Assembly (NCBI GenBank): GCA_964349465.1
Contig: CAYGGC010000001.1
Coordinates: 33,428 to 97,427, forward strand
Reading direction: 5' to 3'
DNA length: 64,000 nucleotides
Origin: an uncultured Gammaproteobacteria bacterium
GTDB taxonomy: Bacteria > Patescibacteriota > Patescibacteriia > SBBC01 > CAIJZX01
Part shown: piece by piece, positions 10,591-50,882 of the stretch
Layout of the letters: every line of letters starts with the position of its first letter
Position numbering within the stretch: position 1 is the first letter of the stretch
Program-made: the position numbers and the translations under genes
Notes under the pieces: model-generated
Told to the model about the DNA's origin: nothing
Database searches by the model: none
Seen by the model: the letters and a program-made list of their open reading frames with translations, nothing else

Positions 10591-10606
10591 ATATTTAGCA
10601 ATTTTC

Positions 10607-19600: not shown

Positions 19601-22600
19601 ACCGATACGGCACCGAATAATGAAACTGACGGTACGATTATCGATGTCGGCGGCGACTTCACAATGTCCTCGAGCGCCACGTTTACGTCGTACTCAAATT
19701 CAACCGTCTATCTTAATTCGACGTCCGGGACTGATTCGAACCGAACATTTACAACCGGCGGAAAAGCCTACAATAATGTTGAATTGAAAAACGCTGGCGC
19801 GACGAATGACGATATTACGATTTCCGGTACGCCGTTTGATATTAACGGCACGCTCACGTTGACTGACGGTCAGGTTCGGCTCGATACGAACGATCCGAAT
19901 GTCACCCTGAACGGTAATCTTTCCATTAACGCCAATGCGACAGTCACGAAAGCCGATAACGGAACTGCGACCTGGACCTTCGACGGCGCGACCTCGCCGA
20001 CGACGTGGACCGACGGGACGGGGAGCGGCGGGCAGGATATTGGTTTAGCGATAATCAGCGGGACGACGAAGACGGTTAACCTCGCTTCGAGCGCGAAAGC
20101 GACGAAATTGACGATCGCCGCTAGTCAGGTATTTGGACTTGGGTCATCGGGGTATACTTTTACACTGACAGGGAGTGGGTTCACGCCAAACCATCCGTTA
20201 CAAAACAGTGGTACGTTGAATGAGGGGACAAACTCAACCGTGAAATTTACCGGGACATCTGATTCAGACATTGACCCCGAAGCGTTTCATCATTTAGAAA
20301 TTTCGCCTAGCGGCGCTGGGAGCCCAACCTTTACCTTCGATGTTGCGGAAACCGCAAATCCAACGACGGTCGCCGGAAATATGACTATTGGCGATTCAAC
20401 CAACGCTGTGTCTGTCCAACTTGGTACCTTTTCAGAACTAACCGTCGATGGAAATATCACGATTAGTACCAACGGAACCCTGCTTGGAAGTACTGATGTT
20501 GGGCTGAATCTTGGCGGCTCTTATACAAATAATGGCACTTTTACCGATGCTGGAAATGGAATTAATTTTACAGCCACAACTACCGGAAAGACGATCGCTG
20601 GTAATTTAACAGGTTCAAATAAGTTTTTTGCGATATTTTCCGGAAGCGGTGGAGAATGGACGAATACCAGCGCAGCTGAATTTACTGATCTCGCCATGCT
20701 TGATGGAACATTAGCAGGATCGAATAATATTACCGTTAATGGCGGGACCACAGGTACTGCAGGAATAATAAATCGCTCAGGTGGCACATTTACTCTTAAT
20801 CCTGCAAGCACATCCAGCTTCGGCCCTTCAACCGCCTCAACGTCTTGGACCTTTAACAACCTAACGTTTACCACAACGGCTGGATCGCAGATTACAACTA
20901 CTGTTACAACCTGCTCGACCTGTACATTTACGGTTAACGGGGCAATGAGTGTTGACGCAAAAGTAACTCTGACCATCGCTTCAAGTTCATGGACGGTTGT
21001 TGGGTCGTTAACAACAACAACAACTGGAGCGATTGCGTATACTGGGACACCAACCGTAACGGTGCAAGGCACGGCGCTCGGGGGCGGCACGGGGAATATC
21101 TACTTTTACAATCTCACAAAATCTGGCGCTGGCACGACGACCTGGAGCGGTACCGGGGTGAATGCCGTTCGGAATACCCTGACGCTGTCAGCTGGGACGC
21201 TGGTTGCGCCGAGTAACACACTCTATGTCAACACGTTTACCGAAAGTGGCGGTGCCTTTACACATAACTCGGGCACCGTGATGTTCAATACTGAGGCGAA
21301 CCAGACCCTGACCGCCTCCTCGACGTTTAATAACGTGACGTTCAACGATGGCTTAGTTGGTTGGTGGAATCTTGATGAAACTGCCGGTACGTCCGCCGCG
21401 GATAGTTCTGGGTATGGTCACACCGGAACCCACACAAACACGCCGACGATTAGCACCGATGTACCGACCGTAAACTTTGCCAATTCCCGAAGCTTGGATT
21501 TTAATGGCACAACACAATATGTCGATCTTGGGACGGCGCCGTTTATTAACACCGAATTCGCCGATAAAATTACGTTATCAGCGTGGGCAAAACCAGCAAA
21601 TTTAACAAACTCTGGGACGATTATTGGAAAATCCTTTGACACGAATCATAGTTCTCCTTTTTACCACTGGAACCTCTTTCAAACAGGCAGCCAGATTTGT
21701 TTTCGAGTTGGGAGTACAAATATTTGTAGCGCAACAAGTACGTTAACGACAAGTTGGCAATTGATCACTGGTGTCTACGATGGATCGAATATGTATCTCT
21801 ATCGCAATGGCACGCAGGTGGCGACAACCGCGAAAACAGGGAATGTCGGAAATGGGCTGCAAAGCGCACGAATCGCCGGTCGTGATACGCCGGGTGCCGG
21901 TTTATCGGAATACTTTGCTGGGAAAATTGATGATGTGCGTATTTATCGTCGTGCTTTATCCTCAGGCGAAGTGACGACGTTAAGCAACGGCGACGAATGG
22001 GGATTAACTGGCGCGACCTGGACTCTCGGCGCTGATCTAACGCTCGCCGGGACGCTCGGAATAAAAACCGGTACACTTGATACACATGTCACCAACAATC
22101 GGTCGATCACGGTCGGCAGTAGTTGGTTGAATGACGGGGGCGTCTTTACCGCTCGGGCCGGGACAGTGACGATGAATGCGGGCTCGTCGGGCAAAACAAT
22201 TACCGCCGGTCAGCAAAGTTTCTATCTCCTCAATCTCAATAACGCTAGTGGTGGCTGGACAATGAGTGAGGTCTATACGACCCCGACGATAACCGTGAGT
22301 AATAATATGGTTATTACGGCCGGAACGCTGACCTCGTTAGCGGGCACGCTGTCGGTCGGCGGAGATTTTAATAATGCCGGAACGTTCACGCATAACTCCG
22401 GAACCGTGACGATGACTGGGAGCTCGAAAAATATTACGGGTGGATCGGCGACGACCTTTAATAATCTCACGATTTCTGGCACAACCGGGGTTGACGCGGC
22501 GGGGAGTGATGCGACTGTTGCTAGCCAATTAACCGTCGACAATACCAAGACGCTGACGATCAACAGCGGTCGAACAGTGACACTCTCCGGTACGAGCGGA

Positions 22601-25600
22601 ACAACACTGTCCCTCGTCGGAACGATTACCGGTGCGGGGCGATTGACCTATAAAAATAACGCCACCGCCTTCCCCGCGACTGGCACCATCTCTTCCATTC
22701 TCCGCATGGATGCGACGGCCGGTGACCAATCGATTGGCGGTACCAACTCCGCAACGCGAACATTCGGCGGGTTAGTTGAAATATATTCGAACTCTGCCGG
22801 CACGGCAAAAACAGTAACGCTGGAAAACGGGACTGCTCGAACATTTGCCTTCTCCGGTGCGCTCAATATTATTGCTGACAATACACAAGATCTGACCTTA
22901 ACGGCGGATACCGCTACTGATCCTACTGTCACGGTTACTGGCGATATTGATTTTACTGGAACCGGTGGGGGATCCGAAATTTTGGTGGCTGGTTCTGGAA
23001 CATGGACGGTATCCGGAAATGTTGATTTCACAGCTGGTACCTATACTTCTACCAGCGGAAATAAACTGGTCATGAATGGGACATCAAAAACGTTAACTTC
23101 CGCGTCGCAGGCACTGTATGACTTTGAAGTGTCGGCTGGTACGGTAGCTATTTCTGATGCCACAACTATTTCTCGCGATATGATTCTCAGTGGCGGGACA
23201 CTCACGGGCCCAAGCGGACTGACGGTGAGTGTCGGGCGTGACTGGACGAAGACGAGTGGTTCCTATACAGCAAATACTGGAACTGTTGCCTTAACAACCT
23301 CGACATCGGCAACAATTAGCGGCAGTAACACCTTCTACAATTTGTCTGTTACTGGTATCGGCGCAGCAAAAACTGTGTTAACGGTGGCGGCGACGACGCA
23401 AACCGTTACTGGCACGTGGACGGTGACGGGAGCTTCAGGGCAATTGGTAACTATTAATGCGGCTACAGCAGCACAGTGGAACGTCAACCCAACCGCTGCC
23501 AGTCTTGATTATGTTGATATTTCCTACACAAATAACCAAGGATCGACAATTTGTGCAACTCATTCACAGTCTACCAGTGGAAATAATACAGCGATCACGG
23601 TGACTGCTGGGGCGGGTTGTGGAATTACCATCTCTGGAGTCATTCGTCAAAGCTCCAATGAAACTTCGGCCTATGATTGTTCAGCCAATACGTTGACCAT
23701 CGGAGCTGTTGTGAACGGAGGAACAAGTGCGACCGCTGATTGTACACTGAATACCGGTGTCTACTCGATTAATGCCGCCAACGCGCCATCTGCGGCCGGC
23801 GATCCAATCGTGGTCTATATTAATAATGGAGAAACGCCGATAGGTACAACCGTTTCTCTGTCAGTTGATACATCTTCAAATATTACCAACCTAGATATTA
23901 TTGACGGCCGTTTAGTCACAACGTATGAAAATGCCGGACCGATGACCAACGCAAAAATGGCCACTGGTGATAACGGGAATGCTGGTATTAGGTATTCCGT
24001 GGCCACAGGAAATCTTACCGTCGAGTCTGGAATTGAATTACATGTGAAGAGTGGAAAGACGTTTACACCGGGCGGCACAGTAACGACAACCGCTACTGGT
24101 ACAACAGCTGGGCCTGCAGGTGACCTTCATATTGCTGGAACCTTAACTATGGGCACAAATGCCTTAACCGTTGGTGGTGATTACAATAATGCTGGTACGT
24201 TCAATAAAACGAATACGCAAACGACGACCTTAGCGGCAACTGGCACCGGCTTCACGATTACACCTGGAACAGGCGATATGAATAATTTGACTGTCAGTGG
24301 CGACGCCGGTGGAAATGGAACATATACATTGTCTGGCGCAAATTTGACGGTCGATGGAATTTTGAATGTTAACACTGGTGACACGTTAGCAATTGATACC
24401 AGTCGAACGCTGACAAATTCTGGCTCAACAGACGCTAGCATTAGTGGCACGATTTCTGGTGCTGGAACATTACGATTTGTGAATGGATCTGGCGGTCCAG
24501 GTACGGGCGGTACCATTTCGGTATTAACTCTATTTGATGCTTCGAGCGGTGATATTGCGTCTACAACGGTTGATGCACGCACATATAGTGCAACAGTGGA
24601 ATTGTATGCGAGCTCGTCGAGTGATCGTACAATTACACTCCCATCGTCAACAATAACGTTGTCTGGGTCTTCCTCACATCTCCACATGAAAGCTGATGGC
24701 GCCGGCGACCTCACTGTCGACGGTGCCGCAAATAATCCAACCGTAACGGTTGGTGGAGATATTGCCCTTAACGGTACTGGTGGCGGCGTTGAAGCGTGGG
24801 TGGCCGGAGATAATACGTGGACTTCGTCTGGCAACGTTGATACGGCCCAAGGCTTTTATGCTCCGCATATGGCGGTTCTCAATCCAACCTGGGATAATTA
24901 TGGCTACGAACAGGATGATTATGCTGATGATGGCTTCGGTGGTTGTGATTTCTTAGGCACAAGCTCAAATGCGGGCACAAGTTCTTCGACCTCGCTTACT
25001 CAGGGGTATACAACTGGAGCCTCAACGTCATGTTCGCCATCGGGCACTGATTTCCGCTACCGATCATATTTAAAGTTTAACCTCTCTGGTATTTCAAACA
25101 CAAACACGGTAACTCGTGCAGACCTTCAGATTCATGCTTCAGCTGCCGGTGGAGCCTTTACGGTGTATCGCTCAAATAATGATGCGCCGGATGGTGTGGC
25201 AGCGGGTAGTTTGTATGCAGTGGGCTTAAGTACTGGCTTAAATAGCGTGTATAGTTATGCCACTGGAGTCAACATGATCCCAATGGCACTTGATGGCATG
25301 GCAAATATCCAAAGTTCACTTGGAAATGCCGCCTATGCGGTTGTGCTTGATGGTAGTTCAAGCCTCTCGACTTTGACTTCAACAGATAGTGCCACCAATA
25401 AACCTAAACTTCGAGTCGGATATGTCACCACAGCAACGACTCCGACCTTAGTCATGAATGGAACTGGAACGCTCTCTGGTGGAACGCAGTCTGGTTTTTA
25501 TAACTTGACGATGTCAGGGACAAACACCTTTAACGCCTCTCATGAGGCAAATATTTACAATACTCTGACCTTGTCTGGCTCGATTACGACCAACTCCGCT

Positions 25601-27124
25601 CCGGTGGTTATGGCTGGTTCTGCTTCAACCGTTATAGGTGGGAATAATACCTTAGGCAACCTGACGGTCAGTGGCGGAACCACGACCTTGACGACGTCTG
25701 ACCTCACGACGTCGCTCAATGTGCAACTCCTAAGCAGTGGTACTCTCTCCATCGCTTCGGGCCGAACCTTCACCGCGCAAGGCAATGTGCTTTTGAACTC
25801 GGGGACAACAATCTCGGGCGCTGGGACACTGACGATGACCTCAACATCATCGGGCCCAGGAACGGCCGGGACGTTATCCTCGGTTGCGCGTTATGATGCG
25901 ACGGGTGGAAATATCGCGAACACAACCCTTGATGCGCGAACCTATGGGGGAGCGGTGGAGTTCTATAGCAATAGTGGGAGCGCACGGACTGTGACCGCGC
26001 CGAGCTCCGGTACGTTTATATTCTCCTCAAGCGTTACGACTTCAAGTGTCGGTGGCAATACCTTGACGGTCGACCTTGACGATACAACTGATCCGACGGT
26101 GACGATTGCGGGGGCGACGACCCTTGGCGCGAATACGACAATGCAAGCACCAAGCAGTACCACTCTGACGCTGAACGGGAACTATACCAACAATGGAACA
26201 TTTACTGACAACAGTGGCACGGTCGCGTTGGCCGGATCTGCTCAACAAACCCTCTCGGGGACGATGACTGGATCGTCGGACTTCAATAACTTGACGGTCA
26301 CAAACGCTTCAGGATCAAATCCGGAATCAAGTCCATCGGTCATTTTCGGTGCGGCTGCCAGCGCGGCCGGGACGTTTACCGCGACAACAGCGGATACGAA
26401 ACTTCGTTTCACCTCGAGTGCGACCTACACCTTCTTGAATGTGACAATGAATGGGCAGGCCATCGGCACACGCGTCTACTTACGGAGCTCAAGCACGGGT
26501 ACACAATGGAACCTTGTCTCGACCGGAACCCAAACTGTTTCCAATACAGACGTGCGTGATTCGAACGCGTGCGGTGGAGATACGATCGATGCGATCGATG
26601 GGACGAGTCAAGACTCAACCCATAACGATTGCTGGAACATCAATACGATTAGTATGTCGATCTCGGATACGACGATTGGCTTCGGTGCCTGCACCTCGGG
26701 ATCCGCTAGATATGCGACAGGGGATACAAATGGGGCGTCGAGCGATAGTGCGGATGCACATACTATTTCCGTCGCGACAAACGCCCGAGGTGGGTATAGC
26801 CTGACGGTCACCGGCTCAACGCTGACCGGTACCGGTGGAACGATTACGGCGCTCGGCGGTTCGGCCACGGCTTCAAGTCCCGGATCCGAACAATTCGGAG
26901 CGCGGGCGATAAAGAATAGCGGCACGGGAACGGTGAGTAGCCCGTTCGACACCGCGAACTGGGCGTTTACCCCAAGCACGACGCAAACGGTCGCCAGCTA
27001 TACCGGAGCATCATCGAGTTACTCTGCCGCCTACGGTCTGCGCTATATTTGTAACGTGGCTGGAACAACGGAAGCGGGGAGTTATTCGACTGATCTGACG
27101 TACATTCTTACGGCGACGTTCTAG
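10607..27124 (+). CDS. Giant (~5,500 aa) repeat-rich cell-surface protein: N-terminal cytoplasmic excisionase/MerR-type HTH, single TM/signal anchor, then a huge extracellular region with beta-helix-like Thr/Gly/Asn-rich repeats, a LamG domain, a DNRLRE-like domain and a C-terminal ~150-aa domain shared with the next gene (ORF track starts at TTG 10562)
   Basis: Uninterrupted 16.5-kb ORF; HTH LTIRQTAKILHVHPNTLRAWDRKGKLRAVRFG; hydrophobic APALGLFLLLLGSGWA; multiple internal repeats. Confidence 0.85.
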   Translation: MEKRKLQRFFYRFYPRRLQRRSFVVSASRRPVFSDLPKFLTIRQTAKILHVHPNTLRAWDRKGKLRAVRFGSRHDRRYLRDEVAAAWALTYGRTPIARPNFALPPLRRYAPALGLFLLLLGSGWAEFSSAATEPATVEVYAQPRECSGWVQASAATKIELSPKSDFNKFSIANSAQIRSQDLGFTTDAGAATATFDRVDPELTCAHFSLDEKLTGSLSGTTVRIFLGTNGQLNSTDALKVSWSLDGKDWALVATESVKREEQQPIVIDLPAVTDSQRLADLRVRLQPDFSLNGDSSVFVDGVRVEARLHPPEPTPSVQSAPARQKELDRLTAFSKASYESDDQPEVTVPKQQTKRRFLFGKKVETWKLKDVSLIDSKSESMSVDYRSVDQVSGDDTNARLRLRMSSQHPGKYILRITMISPTGTIEVVEKTFLWGVLAVNITRANPAVGQTQLVGIGVLDDTGRTICDASVQATVTDPKGRKTQFETRNGSLKTNPTCVDKGVTNEADYHFALTLEQAGVYRVSVTADTTVGERKIEENFITEATQPFTVERVDYPTRIFPPAEYPVRIAITPKKDYLGLVTEEIPTDFTITNIFPAGTLRTVGTTVKKQFIEWLVEWKAGQTYYLTYTFDAPDISPALFLTGPLTIGGSFIAAPDFQESRQWQIASDAISANGNFYYGDTTNAGKIKMTPFTTASTYGTEVNVNLGPAVNIMHVVAKTAPTREEKMIGYISGNPTTDGRLDIVTGTTGFEAAGDYTLRWTATSVTDGQDCDAAPTAGTCTQAFDLGYEQLSGRGLVVYAGDADASGAPDADKIYYALWDGSAWSPDTTPNTPSATNELSLPGTGATPRWIRVVPAGDNLADERSNRAVVLVADSDDDLYAYYWDGSTFDAGTELFTTLGNCASARCFDGNWQGNNTFIVNYTNSGVSEVRYQKYSVGSGWGGDTQAFTTAATPSFLFSAADPTSSRIMIANFTSGNDTRGAVWRADDATDGWTVCASGGCPDTAAEGIGGPQAGIAFERFSGEALHVFNDAANGTAQGNIYMTYTPTSTWSATSTTGITPSDDHQFTKLIPSPNSDDIMVIAGDVDCDVDATMWGGSAPSTVGSNFELLLSSSNGSCANSVPIAGMMTTGGIDFAWNIYSPWGLNWRWTGDTTTANPGSYLANENVTPTGVADATTVRLRYGFVNRGTTAQALSAEGRKKLQYTSDDPETLTATWADVDADDGAGIWRYNNCTAGTDDSAIPSAVLTAPSGGSNIVGDFIEGSGNITQTHSAGPAVAIENDYCIESNGATGSTTYYFRAFDNEQQTPVWREQDNDGANDCATAACTYPSLSTAAQTITVSGTCDAYDQTTNCADLGDIRVAVGGTLQSQLDTQGGGGPGGTDGTFSITSVPKPSANAIVTVFVDGAPATASNRAVAITKYDGSGSISGLQLFKEHLTIGSADTAATLTSAELGSYDNSVSSSDADVFHDYNGSTTFTVDSTGFSTQEELYIGSGWTYRPDSGGGDTLTTTSIEIAAGTLTLDSNTFNVGGSFDNDGVLTASTSTTNFTAASGTNTIDADGTAAEAFYNVVFNDSAGSATYQLTTVFDADNNVTITGGNFDANSNAVTVGGSWDNDDTFTSGTQTTTFNAPSGTKTIDADGTGADSFSSIVFNDAAGSAVFQLTTAMDVNVDLTITGGNLQAQGNQINIGGVFDNDDTYTHGNNLIVFDATSGTKSMDTDGTGTEALYDVTFNDGGGSATFEFSQALDIDHNVTITGGTFSRTGSFTVGGSWDNDDYFFGDGVNNITFDATSGTVAIDARGNYVEFSQADFSMRVVLNDGGGSAVFQMTTDAIISNGLAITGGELQAQGHYIDLWDGIFDNDDTFTHGNGTIYLEASSGTNIHDFDGTGTDALYNLQIDDGGGTATHQLSTLLDVDNNLTIVGGTLNANSQAITVGGNWDNDDTFTSGTATVTFDASDTDNTIDADGTGTDTFSSVTFAGGDGSGTWTLTTAMDVTVAMNVDTSDILSIDSGMTLSLNRTTTAQSLTLNGTIQGAGRLTYQLPTSVATFPTTGTISSILRFDATTDVQTVPERTYGGNVELYEATGGCASRTFTLATTAGQTLNFSGDLSLIEGNCGGVPVAGNTNNPIVNITGNLTQNASTNSSSITGGTQTWTVSGSIDLQDGAASSSITNLTLNGTTKTIAVVGSLDVTGTLTIDGSYTVTASATSNLYVSGTLIVNTGKTLAINSGQSFLCGGTVTLTGTAQISGAGTLTVASSSLGTGGTLSSIVRFDVSGGDVTMPNRTYGGAVEVFMDDSATAAHKVIMAGGTQTLQSSLYVIDNSNTYNLTLDASNGGANNPTVTVTGDVDFTGTGTGSEALITGTGTWTVGGNIDFTGGTFTATSGNTMEMTGASKTITTAGSALHHLTVSAGSVTASGATTLNGNMLISGGSFAGPAAAFNVAGNWTNSGGTYVEGTGTVTLNGATSTTLNSGCSNTDSCANNNFYNLEINKTDAADGNDNVTLDTNGINVANTLTITDGELVQGALNVRAEGATAVSIVSTGKWSNISTGDIKLGGTATNNGTWLLDVGGNSDGCGGGDTDDITLTTTDGATQRSLAGSGTFTWYDVSVSYMNATVAITVNGGTNVSNNAGSFTFNACGITITGTIYSNSGGEASAVYNCSSDNLTIHTSISGGTSSNGTCTAVGGTFSIVTNGPPSSAGDPIVLWIDSVETPKATTVTLAADTSSNISGLNLIQDRLILTHENGGPMTNAKLSTGDNGNAGIRYAVSGSNLTVESGMELHVASTKAYTPGGMVTTTASASPSSAAGDVHVVGTMTMGTYALSVGGDLTNGGTLSLSSGQTTTMTATGSGFTITAGGASFQGLTFNGASGGWTNSGALTVSEIWTGTAGGFTQANSTTITVNGTAFSLANGFTWTKATSGANLILENATNLDFTDSNTTKQDLGAVQIGASPGVTTLKSDMSATTVTIPTSDTLNTKGWDITASGAFDCQGTCTLNLTDTAPNNETDGTIIDVGGDFTMSSSATFTSYSNSTVYLNSTSGTDSNRTFTTGGKAYNNVELKNAGATNDDITISGTPFDINGTLTLTDGQVRLDTNDPNVTLNGNLSINANATVTKADNGTATWTFDGATSPTTWTDGTGSGGQDIGLAIISGTTKTVNLASSAKATKLTIAASQVFGLGSSGYTFTLTGSGFTPNHPLQNSGTLNEGTNSTVKFTGTSDSDIDPEAFHHLEISPSGAGSPTFTFDVAETANPTTVAGNMTIGDSTNAVSVQLGTFSELTVDGNITISTNGTLLGSTDVGLNLGGSYTNNGTFTDAGNGINFTATTTGKTIAGNLTGSNKFFAIFSGSGGEWTNTSAAEFTDLAMLDGTLAGSNNITVNGGTTGTAGIINRSGGTFTLNPASTSSFGPSTASTSWTFNNLTFTTTAGSQITTTVTTCSTCTFTVNGAMSVDAKVTLTIASSSWTVVGSLTTTTTGAIAYTGTPTVTVQGTALGGGTGNIYFYNLTKSGAGTTTWSGTGVNAVRNTLTLSAGTLVAPSNTLYVNTFTESGGAFTHNSGTVMFNTEANQTLTASSTFNNVTFNDGLVGWWNLDETAGTSAADSSGYGHTGTHTNTPTISTDVPTVNFANSRSLDFNGTTQYVDLGTAPFINTEFADKITLSAWAKPANLTNSGTIIGKSFDTNHSSPFYHWNLFQTGSQICFRVGSTNICSATSTLTTSWQLITGVYDGSNMYLYRNGTQVATTAKTGNVGNGLQSARIAGRDTPGAGLSEYFAGKIDDVRIYRRALSSGEVTTLSNGDEWGLTGATWTLGADLTLAGTLGIKTGTLDTHVTNNRSITVGSSWLNDGGVFTARAGTVTMNAGSSGKTITAGQQSFYLLNLNNASGGWTMSEVYTTPTITVSNNMVITAGTLTSLAGTLSVGGDFNNAGTFTHNSGTVTMTGSSKNITGGSATTFNNLTISGTTGVDAAGSDATVASQLTVDNTKTLTINSGRTVTLSGTSGTTLSLVGTITGAGRLTYKNNATAFPATGTISSILRMDATAGDQSIGGTNSATRTFGGLVEIYSNSAGTAKTVTLENGTARTFAFSGALNIIADNTQDLTLTADTATDPTVTVTGDIDFTGTGGGSEILVAGSGTWTVSGNVDFTAGTYTSTSGNKLVMNGTSKTLTSASQALYDFEVSAGTVAISDATTISRDMILSGGTLTGPSGLTVSVGRDWTKTSGSYTANTGTVALTTSTSATISGSNTFYNLSVTGIGAAKTVLTVAATTQTVTGTWTVTGASGQLVTINAATAAQWNVNPTAASLDYVDISYTNNQGSTICATHSQSTSGNNTAITVTAGAGCGITISGVIRQSSNETSAYDCSANTLTIGAVVNGGTSATADCTLNTGVYSINAANAPSAAGDPIVVYINNGETPIGTTVSLSVDTSSNITNLDIIDGRLVTTYENAGPMTNAKMATGDNGNAGIRYSVATGNLTVESGIELHVKSGKTFTPGGTVTTTATGTTAGPAGDLHIAGTLTMGTNALTVGGDYNNAGTFNKTNTQTTTLAATGTGFTITPGTGDMNNLTVSGDAGGNGTYTLSGANLTVDGILNVNTGDTLAIDTSRTLTNSGSTDASISGTISGAGTLRFVNGSGGPGTGGTISVLTLFDASSGDIASTTVDARTYSATVELYASSSSDRTITLPSSTITLSGSSSHLHMKADGAGDLTVDGAANNPTVTVGGDIALNGTGGGVEAWVAGDNTWTSSGNVDTAQGFYAPHMAVLNPTWDNYGYEQDDYADDGFGGCDFLGTSSNAGTSSSTSLTQGYTTGASTSCSPSGTDFRYRSYLKFNLSGISNTNTVTRADLQIHASAAGGAFTVYRSNNDAPDGVAAGSLYAVGLSTGLNSVYSYATGVNMIPMALDGMANIQSSLGNAAYAVVLDGSSSLSTLTSTDSATNKPKLRVGYVTTATTPTLVMNGTGTLSGGTQSGFYNLTMSGTNTFNASHEANIYNTLTLSGSITTNSAPVVMAGSASTVIGGNNTLGNLTVSGGTTTLTTSDLTTSLNVQLLSSGTLSIASGRTFTAQGNVLLNSGTTISGAGTLTMTSTSSGPGTAGTLSSVARYDATGGNIANTTLDARTYGGAVEFYSNSGSARTVTAPSSGTFIFSSSVTTSSVGGNTLTVDLDDTTDPTVTIAGATTLGANTTMQAPSSTTLTLNGNYTNNGTFTDNSGTVALAGSAQQTLSGTMTGSSDFNNLTVTNASGSNPESSPSVIFGAAASAAGTFTATTADTKLRFTSSATYTFLNVTMNGQAIGTRVYLRSSSTGTQWNLVSTGTQTVSNTDVRDSNACGGDTIDAIDGTSQDSTHNDCWNINTISMSISDTTIGFGACTSGSARYATGDTNGASSDSADAHTISVATNARGGYSLTVTGSTLTGTGGTITALGGSATASSPGSEQFGARAIKNSGTGTVSSPFDTANWAFTPSTTQTVASYTGASSSYSAAYGLRYICNVAGTTEAGSYSTDLTYILTATF
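10730..10880 (+). other. Excisionase/MerR-type helix-turn-helix DNA-binding domain at N-terminus of the giant protein (cytoplasmic side of the TM segment)
   Basis: Motif …LTIRQTAKILHVHPNTLRAWDRKGKLRAVRFGSRHDRRYLRDEV… matches the HTH_17/excisionase family pattern. Confidence 0.55.
18515..19010 (+). repeat. Intragenic duplicated segment, copy 1 (~165 aa, NACGITITGTIYSNSGG…TTTASAS); ~65% aa identity to copy 2 at 23607-24100; GC ~52%
   Basis: Direct comparison of translated segments; third-position G/C rich. Confidence 0.6.
21330..21985 (+). other. LamG (concanavalin A-like lectin) domain within giant protein
   Basis: LVGWWNLDETAGTSAADSSGYGHTGT…LDFNGTTQYVDLG…ITLSAWAKP…WQLITGVYDGSNMYLYRNG…FAGKIDDVRIYRRALSSGEV matches the LamG family pattern. 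Confidence 0.65.
23607..24100 (+). repeat. Intragenic duplicated segment, copy 2 (GAGCGITISGVIRQSSNE…TTTATGT); GC ~45%, A/T-rich third positions, unlike copy 1
   Basis: Same amino-acid block encoded with different codon preference. Confidence 0.6.
24900..25440 (+). other. DNRLRE-like carbohydrate-binding-type domain within giant protein
   Basis: …FRYRSYLKFNLSGISNTNTVTRADLQIHASAAGG…KPKLRVGYV pattern. Confidence 0.4.
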
Positions 27125-27164
27125 GAGTAATGGTCAAGAGGGAGGGCTACGGAGTGACCCCCTT

Positions 27165-27193
27165 TTGACGTTTCCTAAAAATTGTGCTATACT
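27165..27193 (+). promoter_or_regulatory. Promoter TTGACG-17-TATACT upstream of the 360-aa secreted protein gene
   Basis: Good -35/-10 with 17-bp spacer, 70 bp upstream of ATG 27265. Confidence 0.45.
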
Positions 27194-27264
27194 ACATACA
27201 TATCAACATATCCCCTAAAGGCTGGGGATTTAAAAACCCATATTTTTAGCCAAAAAACACACTC

Positions 27265-28347
27265 ATGATACACCTTATGAACAAGTCCCAACGACGCGCA
27301 ATTTCGATAATTGCGATGTTTGCAGTTCTGTTTGGTGCAAATTTCGGCTTTGTAGGCATCGCGAACGCCGCAACGGTGACGAGCTTTAAAGACGTCCAAA
27401 CGACGCTCGTTGATTCGGCTAATTCAAACCACACCATTTCATGGGTTTCTCCGAGTGGGGTAGCAAACGCGTCGACAATTGTCCTCACTTTTGCGACAGG
27501 CTTCAGTTTAACTGGGGTGATTGAAAACGATATCGACATTGCCGGTTCAACGGAGGGAGAACTAACGACCGCAGCTGATTGTACCGGCGCTGAAAATGCT
27601 GGCGTCGTTCCATCAGGACAAACAATCACGATTACACTGTGTACTGGTGATGGTGGAGACTTTACAAACTCGGAGACCATTACGGTCGAAATCGGGACGA
27701 ACGCAACCGCGTCGGGGACTGGCGCGAACCAAATTAATAACCAAACGGAAGCGCAAAACAACTCTGATCCAAAAATTACCTTGACCTCGGGTGCCAGCGA
27801 TACTGGAAGCTTGTCGGTCGAAGTGATTGCCGATGATAGCGTGAACGTAACGGCGACGGTTGATCCTTCGATTACCTTTTCTATTTCTGACACAACGATT
27901 GGTTTTGGAACGTTGACCACTGGTGCGGCTCGATACGCCAACGGCGCAGCGAGTGGCTCAGCCTCGGTTACCCCCGCTCATACGTTAACAGCTGGTACGA
28001 ATGCGGCGTCTGGGGTGGCGGTTACGTACAATGGTGCGTTGTTAACGAGTGCCAGCAATAACATTGATGCGGCCTCGATCACGGGCGATGCGGATGGTAC
28101 ACCAGGGACCGAACAGTTTGCAATTAGTTTTGATGATAACGGTTCGGCCTTCACAATGGTCAGCGCCTACGATGAAGCTTCGAATAACTCGACTTTCGTC
28201 GCCAGCACAACGACAACCATCTTCTCCACGACCGCGCCGGTTGCTTCCACGGCCGTTGATGCACACTATCTCAGCAACATTGCCGCAAACACTCCGGCTG
28301 GTAGCTATTCAACAGATATTACCTATATTGCGACCGGTACGTTCTAA
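27265..28347 (+). CDS. Secreted 360-aa protein; signal peptide; C-terminal ~150 aa homologous to the C-terminus of the giant protein (…DTTIGFG…ARYA…AGSYSTDITYIATGTF), possibly WxL-like
   Basis: N-terminal signal (AMFAVLFGANFGFVGIANA); clear alignment of C-terminal domains of the two proteins. Confidence 0.8.
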   Translation: MIHLMNKSQRRAISIIAMFAVLFGANFGFVGIANAATVTSFKDVQTTLVDSANSNHTISWVSPSGVANASTIVLTFATGFSLTGVIENDIDIAGSTEGELTTAADCTGAENAGVVPSGQTITITLCTGDGGDFTNSETITVEIGTNATASGTGANQINNQTEAQNNSDPKITLTSGASDTGSLSVEVIADDSVNVTATVDPSITFSISDTTIGFGTLTTGAARYANGAASGSASVTPAHTLTAGTNAASGVAVTYNGALLTSASNNIDAASITGDADGTPGTEQFAISFDDNGSAFTMVSAYDEASNNSTFVASTTTTIFSTTAPVASTAVDAHYLSNIAANTPAGSYSTDITYIATGTF

Positions 28348-28386
28348 TCGGTCGATCTTTCATCCGACATTTTAACGCCAAACGCC

Positions 28387-29391
28387 ATGCGCCAACGCAC
28401 TGCTCTCCTCGTCTCGCTCAGTGTGTTCCTCGCCGGCGTTTTTGGTGTTGGTTCGGCTCAGGCGCTAACGCTTGTTCCCCCGAGTCTTGAATACACATCA
28501 GCGAAGGGTCAGGTTATTGAGTCACGCGTCAAATTATTGAACAATGAAAATCGGACGCTGGTTTTGACACCCTCCACCGCCAATTTCGGCGCGAAAGATG
28601 AAACTGGCGAACCGGATTTTAAGTTTGACGCGCCTTCAGCTGATCTCTCAGCTTGGATCCAGATTGATAAAGCGCAATTAACACTTGATCCGGGTGAAAC
28701 AAAAGAAGTCCCGTTTACGATCGCCGTTCCGACCGACGCTGAACCAGGTGGTCATTACGCTGGGATTTTTTTCGCCAGCGGTGGCACGGCCACTGGTGGT
28801 GGACAAATCGGGGTTCAGTCGAAGCTCGGGACCCTTGTCATTTTGACGGTTGACGGGAATATTCGTGAACAAGCGGCCATTAGCTCGGTTAAACTTGACG
28901 GTCCTTCAAGCTTGAGCCGTCCTCCAGTCAACCTGAATGTACGAATTAAGAACAGCGGTAACGTTCATGTGAAACCAAAAGGCAAGGTCACTATTTTAAA
29001 TATGTTTGGTGGGGAAGTTGAAACGATTACCCTCCCGCAGGACAAGAATGTGTTGCCGGGCCAAACACGTCTCTTTGAAGTGTCTTGGGCGAAACGTTCG
29101 ACCGAGGCGAAGAAAGGAAATTTCTTCCAAGAAATTGGCGCTGAATTCTCTAACTTCGCACTTGGAACATACACGGCAAACGTTGAAGCAACCTATGGGC
29201 AAAACGATAAAACGATGATTGGGAAGGTCCAATTCGTGATTATCCCATGGCACGCTCTATTAGTTCTGTTCTTGGGCTTAGTGCTGATCATCATCGTCTT
29301 TACGGTTGGTCTCAAATCCTACAATCAAATGGTGATTCGCAAGGCGCAGGCCGCGATGACCAAATCGACGCCGCCGGAAATAAAGAAATAA
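28387..29391 (+). CDS. Cell-surface protein with signal peptide and C-terminal TM anchor + short basic tail; architecture resembles DUF916/DUF3324 (CscA-like) proteins of WxL loci
   Basis: Signal peptide, beta-rich ectodomain, C-terminal helix IIPWHALLVLFLGLVLIIIVFTVGL then KSYNQMVIRKAQ…. Confidence 0.75.
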   Translation: MRQRTALLVSLSVFLAGVFGVGSAQALTLVPPSLEYTSAKGQVIESRVKLLNNENRTLVLTPSTANFGAKDETGEPDFKFDAPSADLSAWIQIDKAQLTLDPGETKEVPFTIAVPTDAEPGGHYAGIFFASGGTATGGGQIGVQSKLGTLVILTVDGNIREQAAISSVKLDGPSSLSRPPVNLNVRIKNSGNVHVKPKGKVTILNMFGGEVETITLPQDKNVLPGQTRLFEVSWAKRSTEAKKGNFFQEIGAEFSNFALGTYTANVEATYGQNDKTMIGKVQFVIIPWHALLVLFLGLVLIIIVFTVGLKSYNQMVIRKAQAAMTKSTPPEIKK

Positions 29392-29397
29392 ATATCG

Positions 29398-30252
29398 ATG
29401 GGGTGGAGATCGTTAACGATCCGTGGGGCGCTGATCTTAATCAGCGTTTTTACGATTTTTTCCTGGCCGAGTGACGCCAAGGCATTTGATGTTACAGTGA
29501 CGGCGACGGTTGTTGATGAAAGTTCGACGCCCCCGGCAAATCCGGTTGTTGAGTTTAAGGGCGTGGCAGCGCCACGAGGTGTGGTGTCGGTGGCGCGAAA
29601 TGGTGTAGTGATTATGACAAGTCCAACCGGCGATTCGGCAGCGTTTGATATTGTAATCGCCGATCAACCAGTAGGTCAGCAGATCTACGATATTACGGCG
29701 GTTGACAATGATGGGCGGTCGTTAACGCCGATGACCTTTGCACTAAATCTCAGCCTTGGTTCAACGACGATTATTCTCGGAATTTTTCTCGGGCCATCCA
29801 TCACGATTGATAAACCGGAAGTGAAGTTGGGCGAAACCGTAACCGTGGCCGGTGCGACGTTGCCGAACAGTACGGTGACCGTGACGGTGAATTCAGTCCA
29901 GGTCAAAAACTATAGTTTTTTGGCCGACGCGAATGGTCGGTGGCAGAAAGATATCAATACCGCCGATATTGGAGTTGGTAGTCATACCGCGAAGGCGCAA
30001 GCGACGATGTCTGGAACTGGCGTATCGGAATTTAGTTCGAGCGTCGCGTTCGCGGTCAACCCCCTCGGACAATGCGATGCAAAAAAAAGTTCCGATTTGA
30101 ACTGTGACGGACGGGTGAACTTAACGGACTTTAGTATCTTGTTATTCTTCTGGCAGCAGCGAAATCCGGCGAATGCTCGGGCTGACGTTAACGCCGATAG
30201 CCGGGTGACCATCGTTGATTTTAGTATCATGTTGTTCCAATGGACCGGATAA
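29398..30252 (+). CDS. Secreted Ig-like protein with C-terminal type-I dockerin module (two Ca-binding repeats)
   Basis: DLNCDGRVNLTDFSILLFFW and DVNADSRVTIVDFSIMLFQW = canonical DxNxDGxVNxxD dockerin repeats. Confidence 0.8.
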   Translation: MGWRSLTIRGALILISVFTIFSWPSDAKAFDVTVTATVVDESSTPPANPVVEFKGVAAPRGVVSVARNGVVIMTSPTGDSAAFDIVIADQPVGQQIYDITAVDNDGRSLTPMTFALNLSLGSTTIILGIFLGPSITIDKPEVKLGETVTVAGATLPNSTVTVTVNSVQVKNYSFLADANGRWQKDINTADIGVGSHTAKAQATMSGTGVSEFSSSVAFAVNPLGQCDAKKSSDLNCDGRVNLTDFSILLFFWQQRNPANARADVNADSRVTIVDFSIMLFQWTG

Positions 30253-31358
30253 TTCTTCGTGGAGCTATACTCGGACTGGCGCTGTTTGTGCTTCAGGTTC
30301 CAGCTGTTCGTGCAGTTGGACCAGCGGTTCGGTTAGTTGGACCATCTGGACAAGTTGAAGCTGGAACTATCTGGCCAGTTGAGGTCCGAGTTGATACCGC
30401 CGGCCTGAATATCAACGCAGCAGAGATTCATTTGTCGGTCATCGGGGTGGGCACGGAAATTACTCGCTTGGGTCGCGAATCATCGATTTTAACGCTCTGG
30501 CCAGAAGTCCCGAGTATCAATGCCGCGACAGCCAAATTTGTTGGTGGGCGACCAGGCGGGGTCGTCGCCGTCGACGCGCTCGTCGGAACGATGTTTGTTG
30601 TTGCTCGCCAGGCCGGTCCGGTGACGATCAACCTGAACTCGGTCACGAGTGGATTGTACCGGCACGATGGTAACGGTACGCGCGTCCAAACTGAGCCTGC
30701 TAGCCTTGAGGTGCAAGTGGCGGACGATCTGGTGCCGGCGTTAGCAATTACCTCGACGACCCATCCAACCGAATCGACCTGGGGCCGAGTTGGGGAAATT
30801 GATGTCGCGTGGGAAGCGTTGCCAGACGAGCAGTTTAGTTACCGACTTTCTAATGATATTGGGGTAGTTCCAGACGATGACATCGATAGCGGTCTCGTTC
30901 CGTTGCGGTTTGATGGACTCGACGATGGGGTCTGGTACTTCGTGATCAAACGCCGCTTACCTGGAGAACCATGGTCATCGGTTTTTCAACGACGCTTCCT
31001 ACTTGATCGAACTCCGCCGGAACCGTTCACTGTTCGTCAACCAGCTTCAAAAACAGTTGCCGGCCGCGCCCTCCTGACTTGGACCGCCTTGGACCGGACC
31101 GCTGGCGTGACGGCCTATCAGGCTACGGTCAACGGACGCGTGGTTGGGGAAGTTGTTAGTCCGTTGGCCCTTCATCCAGATTGGCGTGGTCAGACAATTC
31201 AGATCGTGGCGATCGATGCGGCCGGAAATCAGCGCCTGAGCGAGCCGTGGTTGTACGGGAAACGCCAAGTGGCTATGCCGTGGTGGGCTTGGACCGTGAT
31301 TGGTGTAGTTTTTCTGGGACTCGTCTTCGAGGTCGGTCGCGTAGTCCGACGTCGTTAG
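30240..31358 (+). CDS. Cohesin-domain protein paralog 1: signal peptide, cohesin-like N-domain, Fn3-like middle domain, C-terminal TM anchor
   Basis: Cohesin-like N-domain (…LVGPSGQVEAGTIWPVEVRVDTAGLNINAAEIHLSV…); DRTPPEPFTV; C-terminal TM WWAWTVIGVVFLGLVF. Confidence 0.75.
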   Translation: MDRIILRGAILGLALFVLQVPAVRAVGPAVRLVGPSGQVEAGTIWPVEVRVDTAGLNINAAEIHLSVIGVGTEITRLGRESSILTLWPEVPSINAATAKFVGGRPGGVVAVDALVGTMFVVARQAGPVTINLNSVTSGLYRHDGNGTRVQTEPASLEVQVADDLVPALAITSTTHPTESTWGRVGEIDVAWEALPDEQFSYRLSNDIGVVPDDDIDSGLVPLRFDGLDDGVWYFVIKRRLPGEPWSSVFQRRFLLDRTPPEPFTVRQPASKTVAGRALLTWTALDRTAGVTAYQATVNGRVVGEVVSPLALHPDWRGQTIQIVAIDAAGNQRLSEPWLYGKRQVAMPWWAWTVIGVVFLGLVFEVGRVVRRR

Positions 31359-31383: not shown

Positions 31384-32769
31384 ATGGAGGCGCGTCGAGG
31401 CATGGTTTATCGAGCGGTCGCCTGGCGCAGCGGAGTCATCGTTAGCGCCATGCTCTGGTGCTTTTTTGCGAACACGCACTCAGCGCATGCTGCCGCCTCA
31501 TTAAAAATTACCCCCGCCTCAGGGACGTACGAGGTGGGAGCGTTGGTTGACGTTTCCTTCTTACTTGATACGGGCGGAGATGCCGTGAACGCGGTTCAGG
31601 CCGACATTCAATTTCCGGCCGATAAGTTACAGGTTGTGAATCCAGTCGCGAGCACCTCGTTTATTTCCGTCTGGGTCACAACGCCGACCTATTCGAATAC
31701 TGACGGGACTTTAAAGTTTCAGGGCGGCTTACCAAGTCCAGGGATTAAAACGAGCGGTGGTGTTATTAGTACCGTTTCATTTCGTGTGAAGGCGGCGGGT
31801 CGTGCGACGATTACGTTCGCATCCACCTCAAAAGTTTTACGGAACGATGGTGAGGGAACAAATATTCTTAGTTCAACCGGGACGGCGGATTTTACCTTGA
31901 AAGTCCCGCCGCCTGAGGGTCCGGTGGTAAAAAGCCCAACCCATGGTGATCTCAATCGTTGGTACAATTCCCCCCAAGTCCAGTTTGTGTGGGACTCGGT
32001 CGACGGTGCGAGTGGCTACAGTTATTCCTTCGATCAGAACGCGAAAGTAACCCCTGACGAAACGATTGAAGGAATAACAGCGGCCACCAGCATGAAGGCG
32101 ACTGGGGATGGTGTATGGTTTTTTCATATCCGAGCGAAGACGGACACCTGGGGCGGAACGACGAGTTTTCCGGTCCAAATCGATACGACCCCGCCGGCCA
32201 GTTTTACGCCCACGTTTGATCATGACCTGATTACCATCGAAGATGTTGGGACCCTGCGGTTTGTTACGACCGACGGCGCTTCAGGTCTTGATTACTATGA
32301 AGTAAAGCAGGTCACCTTGACCGGGGATGCGGCGACAAATAGTTTGTTTGTGGAATCGAGCAGTCCTTACGTTATCCCAAAACTGGGAGCAGGAAAATAT
32401 GAATTTATCGTGCGTGCATTCGACCGCGCCGGAAATACAACCGAAGGCAAGGGGCAGCTGGAAGTTATTGCTAGCGGCGTGCCCTTCTATGCCCGAGTTC
32501 CGATCCTGCGCGACCCAGCGGTGGCAAACGGGGCGCTTGTTGTCCTGGGATCGCTCTTTGTCGGGGCCGCTTCGATGCTGGTCCTTCGGCGGGTCCGTGT
32601 CCGTTCAACCTTCCAGCATGATTTTGAGCGGCTCGAACGAGACGCGCATCGAAAGGCTGAGCAACTGCAACGCGAACTTGAACAGCTGCGTTCGGCCCAG
32701 CGACTGGTGCAGAGTGATCTTGGGCCCGACCCCGGACTATCTCCTCAGCCTCATCAGCCGCCACGATGA
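31384..32769 (+). CDS. Cohesin-domain protein paralog 2 (cohesin + Fn3-like + TM + coiled-coil/Pro-rich cytoplasmic tail)
   Basis: ASLKITPASGTYEVGALVDVSFLLDTGGDAVNAVQADIQFPADKLQVV cohesin signature; paralogous to neighbours. Confidence 0.8.
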   Translation: MEARRGMVYRAVAWRSGVIVSAMLWCFFANTHSAHAAASLKITPASGTYEVGALVDVSFLLDTGGDAVNAVQADIQFPADKLQVVNPVASTSFISVWVTTPTYSNTDGTLKFQGGLPSPGIKTSGGVISTVSFRVKAAGRATITFASTSKVLRNDGEGTNILSSTGTADFTLKVPPPEGPVVKSPTHGDLNRWYNSPQVQFVWDSVDGASGYSYSFDQNAKVTPDETIEGITAATSMKATGDGVWFFHIRAKTDTWGGTTSFPVQIDTTPPASFTPTFDHDLITIEDVGTLRFVTTDGASGLDYYEVKQVTLTGDAATNSLFVESSSPYVIPKLGAGKYEFIVRAFDRAGNTTEGKGQLEVIASGVPFYARVPILRDPAVANGALVVLGSLFVGAASMLVLRRVRVRSTFQHDFERLERDAHRKAEQLQRELEQLRSAQRLVQSDLGPDPGLSPQPHQPPR

Positions 32770-34421: not shown

Positions 34422-35122
34422 ACACCTCGTCAAATGTGTGGCTGGTTATTCCGACCTATAATGAGCGGTCGAACCTTGAGGCGCTTGTCCGGCGGATTAC
34501 CACCGCTGGCTCATGGAATATTCTGATTGTTGACGATGCGTCGCCGGACGGGACGGGCGCGTTGGCTGATGATTTGTCACAACGTTGGCCGCAGTTGGCT
34601 GTCCTCCATCGACCGAAGAAGGAAGGACTTGGCCCGGCCTATCGGCATGGCCTACGTGAAGCGCTTGATCGAGGGGCAGAGCTCGTGATTCAGAGCGACG
34701 CGGACTTATCGCATCCACCGGAACTGATTCCGACGATGATTGAGCGCCTTCAGACGACTGATCTCGTTATTGCCTCACGATATGTGGCGGGCGGTCGAAT
34801 GAATATTGGTTGGCAGCGGCGCTGGATTAGTTTGATTGGGAACGTCTACATTCGATTCATGCTGGGTTGGTCGGTTCGAGACTGGAGTACTGGGTTTAAG
34901 GGTTGGCAGGCGGGGATGCTCGATCAGGTTCTGAAAGCGCCATTACGAACCTCCGGCTATGCTTGCTTAATGGAGATGACGTGGTGGGCAAGAAAGTTCG
35001 GTGGGCGAGTCGCCGAGGTACCGCTTGATTTTGTTGATCGGACAGCCGGCGACTCAAAATTTTCCATCCGTATTATTCTTGAGGATATCAAGATGGCCTG
35101 GGAATTGCGTTGGCGACGGTAA
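34418..35122 (+). CDS. GT2 polyprenyl-phosphate mannosyltransferase (Dpm1-like dolichol-/undecaprenyl-phosphate mannose synthase)
   Basis: LVIPTYNERSNL…IVDDASPDGT…QSDADLSHPP motifs; translationally coupled to cohesin paralog 3. Confidence 0.9.
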   Translation: MNTSSNVWLVIPTYNERSNLEALVRRITTAGSWNILIVDDASPDGTGALADDLSQRWPQLAVLHRPKKEGLGPAYRHGLREALDRGAELVIQSDADLSHPPELIPTMIERLQTTDLVIASRYVAGGRMNIGWQRRWISLIGNVYIRFMLGWSVRDWSTGFKGWQAGMLDQVLKAPLRTSGYACLMEMTWWARKFGGRVAEVPLDFVDRTAGDSKFSIRIILEDIKMAWELRWRR

Positions 35123-38705: not shown

Positions 38706-38730
38706 ATCAATTCAAAACTCTTCCCGTTTC

Positions 38731-50880: not shown

Positions 50881-50882
50881 CT

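Follow-up and report, generated by a model that had tools for sequence, protein, structure and literature searches.

Introduction

Two adjacent genes on the forward strand of the window analyzed here (64,000 nucleotides of contig CAYGGC010000001.1) encode products that differ greatly in size and end in related sequences. One is a giant surface protein of 5,520 amino acids (aa), rich in T, G, S, A, and N (10562..27124, +), and the other is a secreted protein of 360 aa (27265..28347, +). What does a C-terminal module do that is carried by both a giant and its small neighbor? The initial annotation of the locus read the two as a WxL-type pair for noncovalent cell-wall attachment, perhaps with a novel anchoring or assembly domain. 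In this work, we used profile searches, structure models, and comparison of related loci to address the question. The results identify the module, on its profile match, as the C-terminal domain (CTD) of the Pam-type pilins of the Candidate Phyla Radiation (CPR)/Patescibacteria. Together with the neighboring genes, they lead us to propose, with a probability of about 0.7, that the locus encodes a Pam-type donor-strand fiber with the giant as tip adhesin, a WxLIP-like chaperone, and anchoring through dockerin and cohesin.

Results

When the last 199 residues of the giant are compared with the 360-aa protein by BLASTP, a single collinear alignment is obtained, with 65 of 159 positions identical (41%), 2 gaps, and an E value of 1e-24, and it runs through the final residue of each protein. 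The initial annotation had noticed this resemblance by eye and proposed a formal pairwise alignment as a check; the outcome is significant, far above chance, and it bears out both the common module and its placement at the extreme C-terminus of the two proteins. The translations of both open reading frames (ORFs) contain the strings quoted there exactly. In the giant, the domain covers aa 5361–5520 (26642..27121, +), and in the 360-aa protein, it covers aa 202–360 (27868..28344, +). These are the only two ORFs in the 64-kb window that carry it. A recent duplication or an assembly artifact was considered as the origin of the pair and excluded, as the pair is kept across ∼30 divergent loci.

The identity of the domain is given by the NCBIfam model NF058581 (CPR_Pam_pilin_C, "Pam pilus system pilin subunit"), which scores 65.4 bits on the C-terminus of the giant and 59.7 bits on the 360-aa protein, with a curated cutoff of 55 bits. 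The same model matches 41 of 41 homologs of the 360-aa protein, at a best E value of 7.9e-23. NF058579, the equivalog model for PamT with a cutoff of 240 bits, gives the two window proteins 18.4 and 19.3 bits, far short of that value. Pfam returned nothing at E ≤ 10 for either C-terminus, including WxL (PF13731), the family against which the initial annotation had suggested testing them. Among the 41 homologs (E ≤ 1), it likewise found no WxL domain, merely scattered immunoglobulin (Ig)-like noise. Searches of the Protein Data Bank (PDB) sequences gave no match with the 360-aa pilin as the query and, with a profile of the CTD, spurious matches to repeat proteins alone.

NF058581 stems from a 2026 preprint on the Pam pilus (bioRxiv 10.64898/2026.03.03.709456). 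In that work, cryo-electron microscopy (cryo-EM) of the Pam filaments of the CPR bacterium Ca. Mycosynbacter amalyticus led to the pilins PamA and PamB, whose C-terminal domain is a truncated Ig-like domain that takes the donor strand of a neighbor by donor-strand exchange (bioRxiv 10.64898/2026.03.03.709456). The same system comprises PamT, an acceptor domain alone that is proposed and modeled as the tip nucleator; PamC and PamD, FimC/PapD-like chaperones that retain a C-terminal transmembrane (TM) helix; and PamR, an RbmA-like, membrane-anchored terminator and proposed anchor that gives an N-terminal strand (bioRxiv 10.64898/2026.03.03.709456). Judged by its profile matches, the shared module of ∼160 aa is the C-terminal domain of such Pam-type pilins. 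Since NF058581 already names the domain, with an experimentally supported role, it is not new as a domain, and the suggestion of a novel anchoring or assembly module has to be given up. By analogy with PamA and PamB, this identity points to fiber polymerization rather than to noncovalent binding of the cell wall.

We turn now to the protein that carries the domain in its smaller setting. The AlphaFold2 (AF2) model of the 360-aa protein, built from the 41-sequence alignment, has a predicted local distance difference test (pLDDT) score of 90.4 and consists of a signal-peptide helix (aa 7–26) and two β domains (aa 39–184 and 203–358). The signal peptide (aa 1–35) is typical, ending in FVGIANA and followed by ATVTS; behind it come the N-terminal β-sandwich (aa ∼39–184), a linker, and the C-terminal acceptor domain. 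The segment between the two β domains (aa 185–202) has no secondary structure in the AF2 monomer model and is highly conserved. Within it lies the putative donor strand IADDSVNVTATVDP (aa 188–201; 27826..27867, +), which is near-invariant in the 41 homologs, ranks with the best-conserved parts of the family, and corresponds to the linker strand donated in PamA/PamB. Its hydrophobic residues alternate (V193, V195, A197, and V199), and the pattern is therefore that expected for a donated edge strand. Because it combines a signal peptide, a β-sandwich, a conserved linker strand, and an acceptor domain, the 360-aa protein is, by sequence and model, a complete pilin of the PamA/PamB type. In all, 428 homologs were found, all called hypothetical, and the source names among the 120 listed homologs are all Patescibacteria, including Kerfeldbacteria and Nomurabacteria.

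Two signals flank the pilin gene. In the 140-bp gap on its 5′ side, a promoter-like site (TTGACG-17-TATACT, 10/12, with an extended −10 TG; 27165..27193, +) would fit stronger expression of a major subunit; shuffled sequences yield at least as many sites of this kind as the region does, and for this one, it is the position alone that is suggestive. A terminator-like hairpin lies across the pilin stop codon (28331–28354), in a region where the number of hairpins is not above that of shuffles, and it could attenuate read-through to the chaperone gene, as occurs after the major-subunit genes of other pili.

The giant departs from the pilin architecture: both the linker and the β-sandwich are missing. 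A local hidden Markov model (HMM) of the linker plus CTD matches the pilin over positions 1–190 and the giant over positions 31–190 only, and the residues that precede the domain of the giant (..DSTHNDCWNINT) are unrelated to the linker. Read from its sequence, the giant is an acceptor groove without a donor strand. Because the acceptor domain is present and the donor strand is absent, such a protein could enter a fiber a single time, in the first, most distal position, and by analogy with PamT, the giant is probably an adhesin at the tip of a Pam pilus. It follows the PamT logic, an acceptor without a linker, but it is not a member of the PamT family.

The same division is seen throughout the domain family. 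The domain profile was searched against 1.84 billion representative proteins, clustered at 50% identity, and it recovers 1,264 clusters at E ≤ 1e-3, of which 582 reach E ≤ 1e-10. Many of these are other large secreted proteins with the domain at the C-terminus, the recurrence that the initial annotation had proposed looking for. Linker statistics were taken from the 144 best-scoring proteins that match the local linker+CTD model. In 143/144, the domain ends ≤2 residues from the C-terminus, and the N-terminal regions to which it is joined are very different, from ∼190 to >5,000 aa. The linker is present in 47/57 proteins of 320–400 aa; it is absent in 28/34 proteins of 400–1,000 aa and in 28/32 proteins of ≥1,000 aa. 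Since linker presence tracks protein length, the family appears to split into polymerizable pilins and large acceptor-only proteins.

The gene next to the pilin gene encodes a candidate chaperone. This product of 334 aa (28387..29391, +) has a signal peptide, two Ig-like domains, and a TM helix (aa 288–309), and the AF2 model (pLDDT 91.4) comprises two Ig-like domains and a C-terminal helix (aa 288–325). In a Foldseek search of the PDB, the best match is 9i1y/9i25_C, "WxLIP from Enterococcus faecium" (E = 1e-11). RbmA follows, and then the chaperones CfaA, CsuC, Caf1M, and FimC at E values of 1e-8 to 1e-7. The match to WxLIPs is also seen in profile comparisons. With hhalign, the 334-aa family aligns to a set of six DUF916/DUF3324 proteins, from plasmids of Enterococcus, Lactococcus, Lactiplantibacillus, Listeria, and Vagococcus, at a probability of 97.2% and an E value of 3e-11 over 201 columns that span both domains. 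Pfam WxLIP_PGBD matches 22/41 members of the family, and the top match of the family profile among PDB sequences is EfmWxLIP1 (E = 0.04). On the basis of sequence and modeled fold, the 334-aa protein is a homolog of the WxLIPs (DUF916-DUF3324-TM), and its architecture, a PapD/FimC-like pair of domains with a C-terminal TM helix encoded in the same operon, makes it the likely counterpart of PamC/PamD.

The next gene encodes a secreted protein of 284 aa (29398..30252, +) with a signal peptide, an N-terminal strand, a Pro-rich spacer, an Ig-like domain, and a dockerin (aa 232–278; Dockerin_1, 35.8 bits, with a gathering score (GA) of 22.9). Its mature N-terminus, FDVTVTATVVDES (29485..29523, +), is a copy of the linker-strand motif of the pilin, being close to VNVTATVDPS in the pilin linker. 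The motif [VIL]x[VIL][ST]Ax[VI] is found straight after the signal peptide in 24/25 nonidentical orthologs of the dockerin protein and in 28/37 pilin linkers; it occurs in 0/18 large linker-less CTD proteins when the 30 aa before the domain are searched, and the background is 1.3% per 70-aa window. Between the strand and the Ig-like domain, the orthologs have a Pro-rich spacer, replaced in two loci by a long Gly-rich one. Because this Pro- or Gly-rich spacer parts the strand from the Ig-like domain, the arrangement argues for a free N-terminal extension that is not part of that domain. The protein has a strand to donate and no acceptor groove of its own, from which we infer that it may act as a terminator of the pilus and as an adaptor for its anchoring.

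Possible partners of the dockerin are encoded directly downstream by three genes for membrane-anchored proteins. The first product (372 aa; 30240..31358, +) has a signal peptide and a TM helix (aa 348–366) and is cohesin-like by its phmmer similarity to the other two (scores 71–89). The second (461 aa; 31384..32769, +) has a signal peptide, a cohesin (27.1 bits, GA 24.1), Ig-like domains, and a TM helix (aa 383–401), and the third (551 aa; 32766..34421, +) has a signal peptide, a cohesin (25.6 bits, GA 24.1), a Big_13/Ig-like region, and a TM helix (aa 463–488). Dockerin_1 and Cohesin thus occur as a predicted pair in adjoining genes, both above the Pfam gathering scores.

The order of these genes is not peculiar to the window. 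We examined three loci reached through individual homologs (L009–L011) and 31 genome loci from the GTDB species collection, the latter being metagenome-assembled genomes of CPR bacteria with the exception of some automatically labeled assemblies. The order giant (CTD, no linker), pilin(s), WxLIP-like protein, dockerin protein, and cohesin-like TM proteins is kept in ∼30 Patescibacteria loci. The gene for the 334-aa protein adjoins the pilin gene in every locus in which the downstream flank is present, and the giant gene lies directly 5′ of the pilin gene in most loci in which the upstream flank is present. Both the 31 loci and the source names of the listed homologs of the pilin are consistent with a restriction to CPR/Patescibacteria. 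The window has one pilin gene and one WxLIP-like gene; in some related loci (L011 (11151–12080), L019, L023, L031, L032, L034, L036, and L040), the WxLIP-like gene occurs twice or three times and there are as many as three pilin genes, an arrangement that recalls PamC plus PamD and PamA/B/E.

The remainder of the giant holds further features. A Laminin_G_3 domain, a ConA-like lectin domain, lies at aa ∼3648–3804 (21503..21973, +; PF13385, E = 3e-24, 86.3 bits), and a self-BLAST of the protein revealed no internal repeats at E 1e-5. Near the N-terminus, an in-frame helix-turn-helix (HTH) of the HTH_17/MerR type is found at aa 54–100 (10721..10861, +; PF12728, 31.3 bits, GA 27). It precedes the hydrophobic segment APALGLFLLLLGSGWA (aa 125–140; 10934..10981, +), which, as read from the sequence, runs on into EFSSA and then AT and is likely a signal peptide or signal anchor behind a long N-region. 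In two other loci, the giants encoded in the corresponding place have a hydrophobic segment and an N-terminal tail that is basic, without an HTH. The HTH of the giant could represent a fused gene for a small regulator, the result of a miscalled start, or a cytoplasmic domain of a signal-anchored protein. HTH regulator genes also adjoin WxL clusters in Firmicutes loci. Divergent from the giant gene on the minus strand is the gene for a LytR-CpsA-Psr family protein (565 aa; 8868–10568), which overlaps the first possible start codon of the giant by 7 nucleotides; because of this overlap, the true start may be the ATG at 10607.

A family-2 glycosyltransferase gene (34418..35122, +; Glycos_transf_2, E = 1.6e-27) overlaps the end of the 551-aa cohesin gene, and its membership of the module is uncertain. 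A gene for signal peptidase I follows after a gap of 231 bp (35354–36055), with a promoter-like site in between (35126–35154). Neither gene is found at the equivalent position in L009–L011. Given the unexplained density on Ser356 of PamA (bioRxiv 10.64898/2026.03.03.709456), a pilus-linked glycosyltransferase is conceivable by analogy.

Farther along the window lies a protein of 1,887 aa (38662–44325) whose N-terminus matches two families, the type IV secretion system pilins (PF18895, 35.8 bits) and the pilin-like conjugal transfer proteins of the Mbov_0395 type. With its additional Big_5 Ig-like domains, it resembles a fusion between a VirB2-like pilin and an extracellular part of very large size. 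Directly after ftsA and ftsZ come tandem genes for two membrane proteins of the DUF2079 family (499 and 515 aa; 49381–52430). Finally, a B12-dependent ribonucleotide reductase (1,168 aa; 53253–56759) has a weak YebC/PmpR-like match at aa 309–381 (E = 9e-6), which may be an insertion or chance.

Discussion

Taken together, the architectures suggest the following assembly. All components would be exported by Sec, and the membrane-anchored 334-aa chaperone would cap the open groove of each newly exported acceptor domain until it is displaced by the linker of the next pilin. The giant would be the first subunit, its groove receiving the linker of the first pilin, and further pilins would join at the base. 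More tentatively, growth would stop when the 284-aa protein inserts its N-terminal strand into the last pilin, and the dockerin of that protein might then tether the fiber to the cell by docking onto cohesin modules in the three membrane-anchored proteins. The outcome would be a fiber whose distal end displays the 5,520-aa adhesin with its lectin domain, in analogy with PamT or FimH/PapG.

Several points weigh against this proposal. The NF058581 scores of both window proteins are little above the cutoff, which marks them as distant members. A Foldseek search of the PDB with the pilin model found just generic two-Ig adhesins of the MSCRAMM/integrin kind, and neither Pam nor WxL chains are among the 50 best matches, in a library that is without Pam structures. 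In the monomer model, the linker has a high pLDDT, so that it may be packed against its own domain. As for the dockerin protein, its strand motif might just contribute to the fold of the protein itself; the nominal binomial P of 1e-44 overstates independence, given that the orthologs are related, and is a measure of conservation. Among the proteins of the locus, no clear PamR-like terminator (RbmA-like, with a TM helix) was recognized. RbmA appears among the fold matches of the single WxLIP-like protein, and the dockerin protein with its strand motif occupies the next position. The 334-aa protein, being RbmA-like too, could thus be an anchor instead of, or besides, a chaperone. In the giant, the long basic/HTH region lies before the hydrophobic segment, and if this segment is uncleaved, the protein would be tethered to the membrane by its N-terminus, a misfit with a free tip. 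Finally, the locus is known from genes and models, and its filament, complexes, and tip placement are predictions.

The alternative that survives best is the one that the initial annotation had put forward. In this scenario, which follows the model of Hassan et al. (2023), a divergent WxL domain attaches both proteins noncovalently to the wall, the WxLIP-like protein stabilizes them, and no polymer is formed. The likeness to WxL clusters is substantial. Such a cluster consists of one WxLIP, a small WxL protein, and a large WxL protein (Hassan et al., PMC10599100), and the window has the same makeup, a small and a large secreted protein with a common C-terminal domain and an adjacent TM protein whose homology to WxLIPs is solid. 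A WxLIP has also been crystallized bound to a long WxL domain (PDB 9i25). Known clusters of this csc type, from Lactobacillales, Listeria, and Bacillus, also encode a small LPXTG protein, and the domain common to their small and large proteins is WxL.

As to membership of the CTD in WxL, profile comparisons give little. The CTD was aligned to WxL domains with hhalign as sets of 19 × 8, 142 × 8, and 142 × 128 sequences in local, global, and greedy modes, the eight being verified WxL domains from plasmid loci that match PF13731 at E values of 1e-30 to 1e-72 (positive controls) and the 128 being the set after a profile search. Only the last 13–15 residues align, at E values of 0.044, 0.022, and 0.01 and probabilities of 1–4%. 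The paired segments are TEAGsYsTxiTYiaT and KxAxxYsTTlTWtLs, so that Y-S-T-x-I-T-Y-I-A of the CTD stands against Y-x-T-T-L-T-W-x-L, a shared terminal pattern of Y-x-T-x-[LI]-T-[WY]-x-[LA]. In greedy mode, the FG and G[WY]x[LI] motifs fall in collinear order, with the "FG" after the first strand paired and G-Y-x-I-T set against G-W-x-L-S, without statistical support. Reciprocal HMM searches between CTD and WxL are not significant (best E ∼0.02), and an NCBIfam scan of WxL proteins gave no cross-match to the Pam models. The CTD has G-Y-x-x-T-Y and T-Y-I-[AL]-T at the Trp-x-Leu positions, with Tyr in place of both Trp residues and no conserved Trp. The failure to detect a relationship is weak evidence against homology, because a profile of small WxL domains barely detects even the long WxL domain of 9i25 chain A (E = 0.019).

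In our judgment, wall binding by a WxL domain is an unlikely explanation of the locus. No Pfam WxL match is found in either copy or in the homologs, profile–profile probabilities do not exceed 4%, and the relatives of the domain form filaments via strand donation in cryo-EM (bioRxiv 10.64898/2026.03.03.709456). Moreover, the wall-binding model gives no role to the linker split or to the strand copy on the dockerin protein. Of the WxL-type pair first proposed, then, the locus layout, the WxLIP homolog, and the small/large pair with an assembly or attachment module stand, while membership of the domain in WxL (PF13731) is unsupported. The two explanations are not fully exclusive, as WxL clusters may themselves use strand donation.

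A second alternative keeps the pilin fiber and removes the giant from it. The acceptor domain of the giant would be permanently capped by the membrane-anchored WxLIP-like protein, which would hold the adhesin on the cell, while the pilin forms separate fibers. The TM helix of the WxLIP-like protein would suit such a role, RbmA, the fold of the proposed anchor PamR, is among its top fold matches, and the E. faecium complex of a WxLIP with a long WxL domain is stable enough to crystallize (9i25). Set against this are the position of the giant gene directly 5′ of the pilin gene, the presence of the same acceptor domain in both proteins (41% identity), which suits insertion of a pilin linker, and the modeling of the acceptor-only PamT as tip nucleator (bioRxiv 10.64898/2026.03.03.709456). 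We regard this arrangement as improbable.

A third possibility is that the C-terminal module serves as a tag for sorting or secretion, akin to the type IX secretion system (T9SS) CTD, PEP-CTERM, and further sorting signals at the C-terminus; it would send otherwise unrelated proteins to a machine for export or attachment and would later be removed or buried. Its constant place at the extreme C-terminus of very different proteins and the signal peptidase I gene ∼230 bp 3′ of the operon would agree with such a tag, but this is very improbable given that the mature PamA/PamB filament contains the domain as an integral, structured element (bioRxiv 10.64898/2026.03.03.709456), that its 160 aa with an Ig-like fold are far larger than sorting signals, that no T9SS, sortase, or exosortase component is found among the neighbor products, and that the signal peptidase is not kept beside the module in L009–L011.

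The proposed fiber with a giant tip is closest to the Pam pilus of Ca. Mycosynbacter amalyticus (PamA/PamB/PamE, PamT, PamC/PamD, and PamR). The two have in common the CTD family, the pilin architecture, an acceptor-only subunit, a membrane-anchored two-Ig chaperone-like protein, the restriction to CPR bacteria, and the lack of an usher or trans-envelope machine. They differ in the acceptor-only subunit, which here is a multidomain protein of 5,520 aa and in PamT is a single domain of 241 model positions. Here, a dockerin protein with a strand motif and three cohesin-like TM proteins take the place of a recognized RbmA-like TM terminator, the neighbors include no ATP synthase or CorB genes, and the nearest named relatives are Kerfeldbacteria and Nomurabacteria, whereas Saccharimonadia and Microgenomatia are the most populated classes in the preprint. 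The preprint mentions no dockerin, cohesin, WxL, or giant subunits (bioRxiv 10.64898/2026.03.03.709456). New relative to it are therefore the giant acceptor-only subunit, the dockerin/cohesin set replacing PamR, and the chaperone with homology to WxLIPs.

The chaperone–usher pili of Gram-negative bacteria (Fim, Pap, Csu, CFA/I, and Caf1) offer a more distant comparison. They share a pilin domain whose incomplete Ig-like fold is filled in by a donated strand, a chaperone fold of two Ig-like domains, a tip adhesin made of a receptor-binding part and a pilin domain, and a terminator unable to accept a strand. In contrast, the system described here has a membrane-anchored chaperone, no usher, and no outer membrane. 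No usher match is found among the products of the operon or its flanks, and, to our knowledge, CPR bacteria are without an outer membrane. Further, the donor strand here is an internal linker, not an N-terminal extension, and no sequence similarity is detectable. FimH and PapG are also ∼twenty times smaller than the giant tip subunit proposed here. As to the base of the fiber, cohesin–dockerin anchoring, as in cellulosomes and in surface proteins of other bacteria, likewise pairs a secreted protein bearing a C-terminal type I dockerin with membrane- or surface-anchored cohesins encoded beside it. Unlike in those systems, no glycoside hydrolases are involved here, and the cargo would be the base of a pilus.

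The homology between the 334-aa protein and the WxLIPs raises the question of whether WxL clusters work in a similar way. In Firmicutes plasmid WxL loci (L003, L005, L006, and L007), the small WxL and small LPXTG proteins both carry, at the N-terminus, a "[ST]xxGxIxF" strand ahead of a Pro-rich spacer, a strand that is absent from the large WxL proteins. The NCBIfam model EF0750_LPXTG matches the N-termini of 5/8 WxL proteins (best E = 8e-7). This distribution of N-terminal strands suggests strand donation in WxL clusters as well, and the layout of small WxL, LPXTG, and large WxL proteins mirrors that of pilin, dockerin protein, and giant. An AF2 prediction has a hairpin strand of the WxLIP inserting into WxL (PMC10599100). 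The clusters differ from the present locus in that the CPR small protein has an extra N-terminal β-sandwich, that WxL proteins are described as peptidoglycan binders and not as fibers, and that anchoring here would be by dockerin and cohesin rather than LPXTG and sortase. No LPXTG protein or sortase is found among the operon products, and the dockerin protein holds the equivalent role. Our literature search found no paper that links WxL clusters with donor-strand fibers.

We therefore offer, tentatively and at somewhat less than even odds, the idea that Pam pili and WxL/WxLIP (csc) clusters are two branches of one ancient family of usher-free, chaperone-aided donor-strand fibers of single-membrane bacteria. 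The WxL domain would be a strand-accepting pilin domain. Small WxL proteins would polymerize, and large ones would sit at the tip as adhesins; the small LPXTG protein would donate the terminating strand, and the WxLIP would serve as a membrane-anchored chaperone. In the locus described here, the tip adhesin would have 5,520 aa, and a dockerin–cohesin tether would replace the sortase.

Conclusions

A dockerin–cohesin tether at the base of a pilus would, if true, be a new use of that module. The WxLIP homology ties a recently described CPR pilus to the WxL clusters, which are widespread, are virulence-associated in Enterococcus, Listeria, and lactobacilli, and are unsettled in mechanism, and the connection suggests a concrete strand-donation model for them. 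For the CPR/Patescibacteria themselves, which live attached to host cells and whose host recognition is largely unknown, the acceptor domain provides a simple sequence handle for finding giants of the kind described here, given its 1,264 clusters, many of them of 1,000–3,500 aa. If such giants, with their variable N-terminal regions, are the tips of Pam-type pili, they would be prime candidates for the determinants of host specificity.

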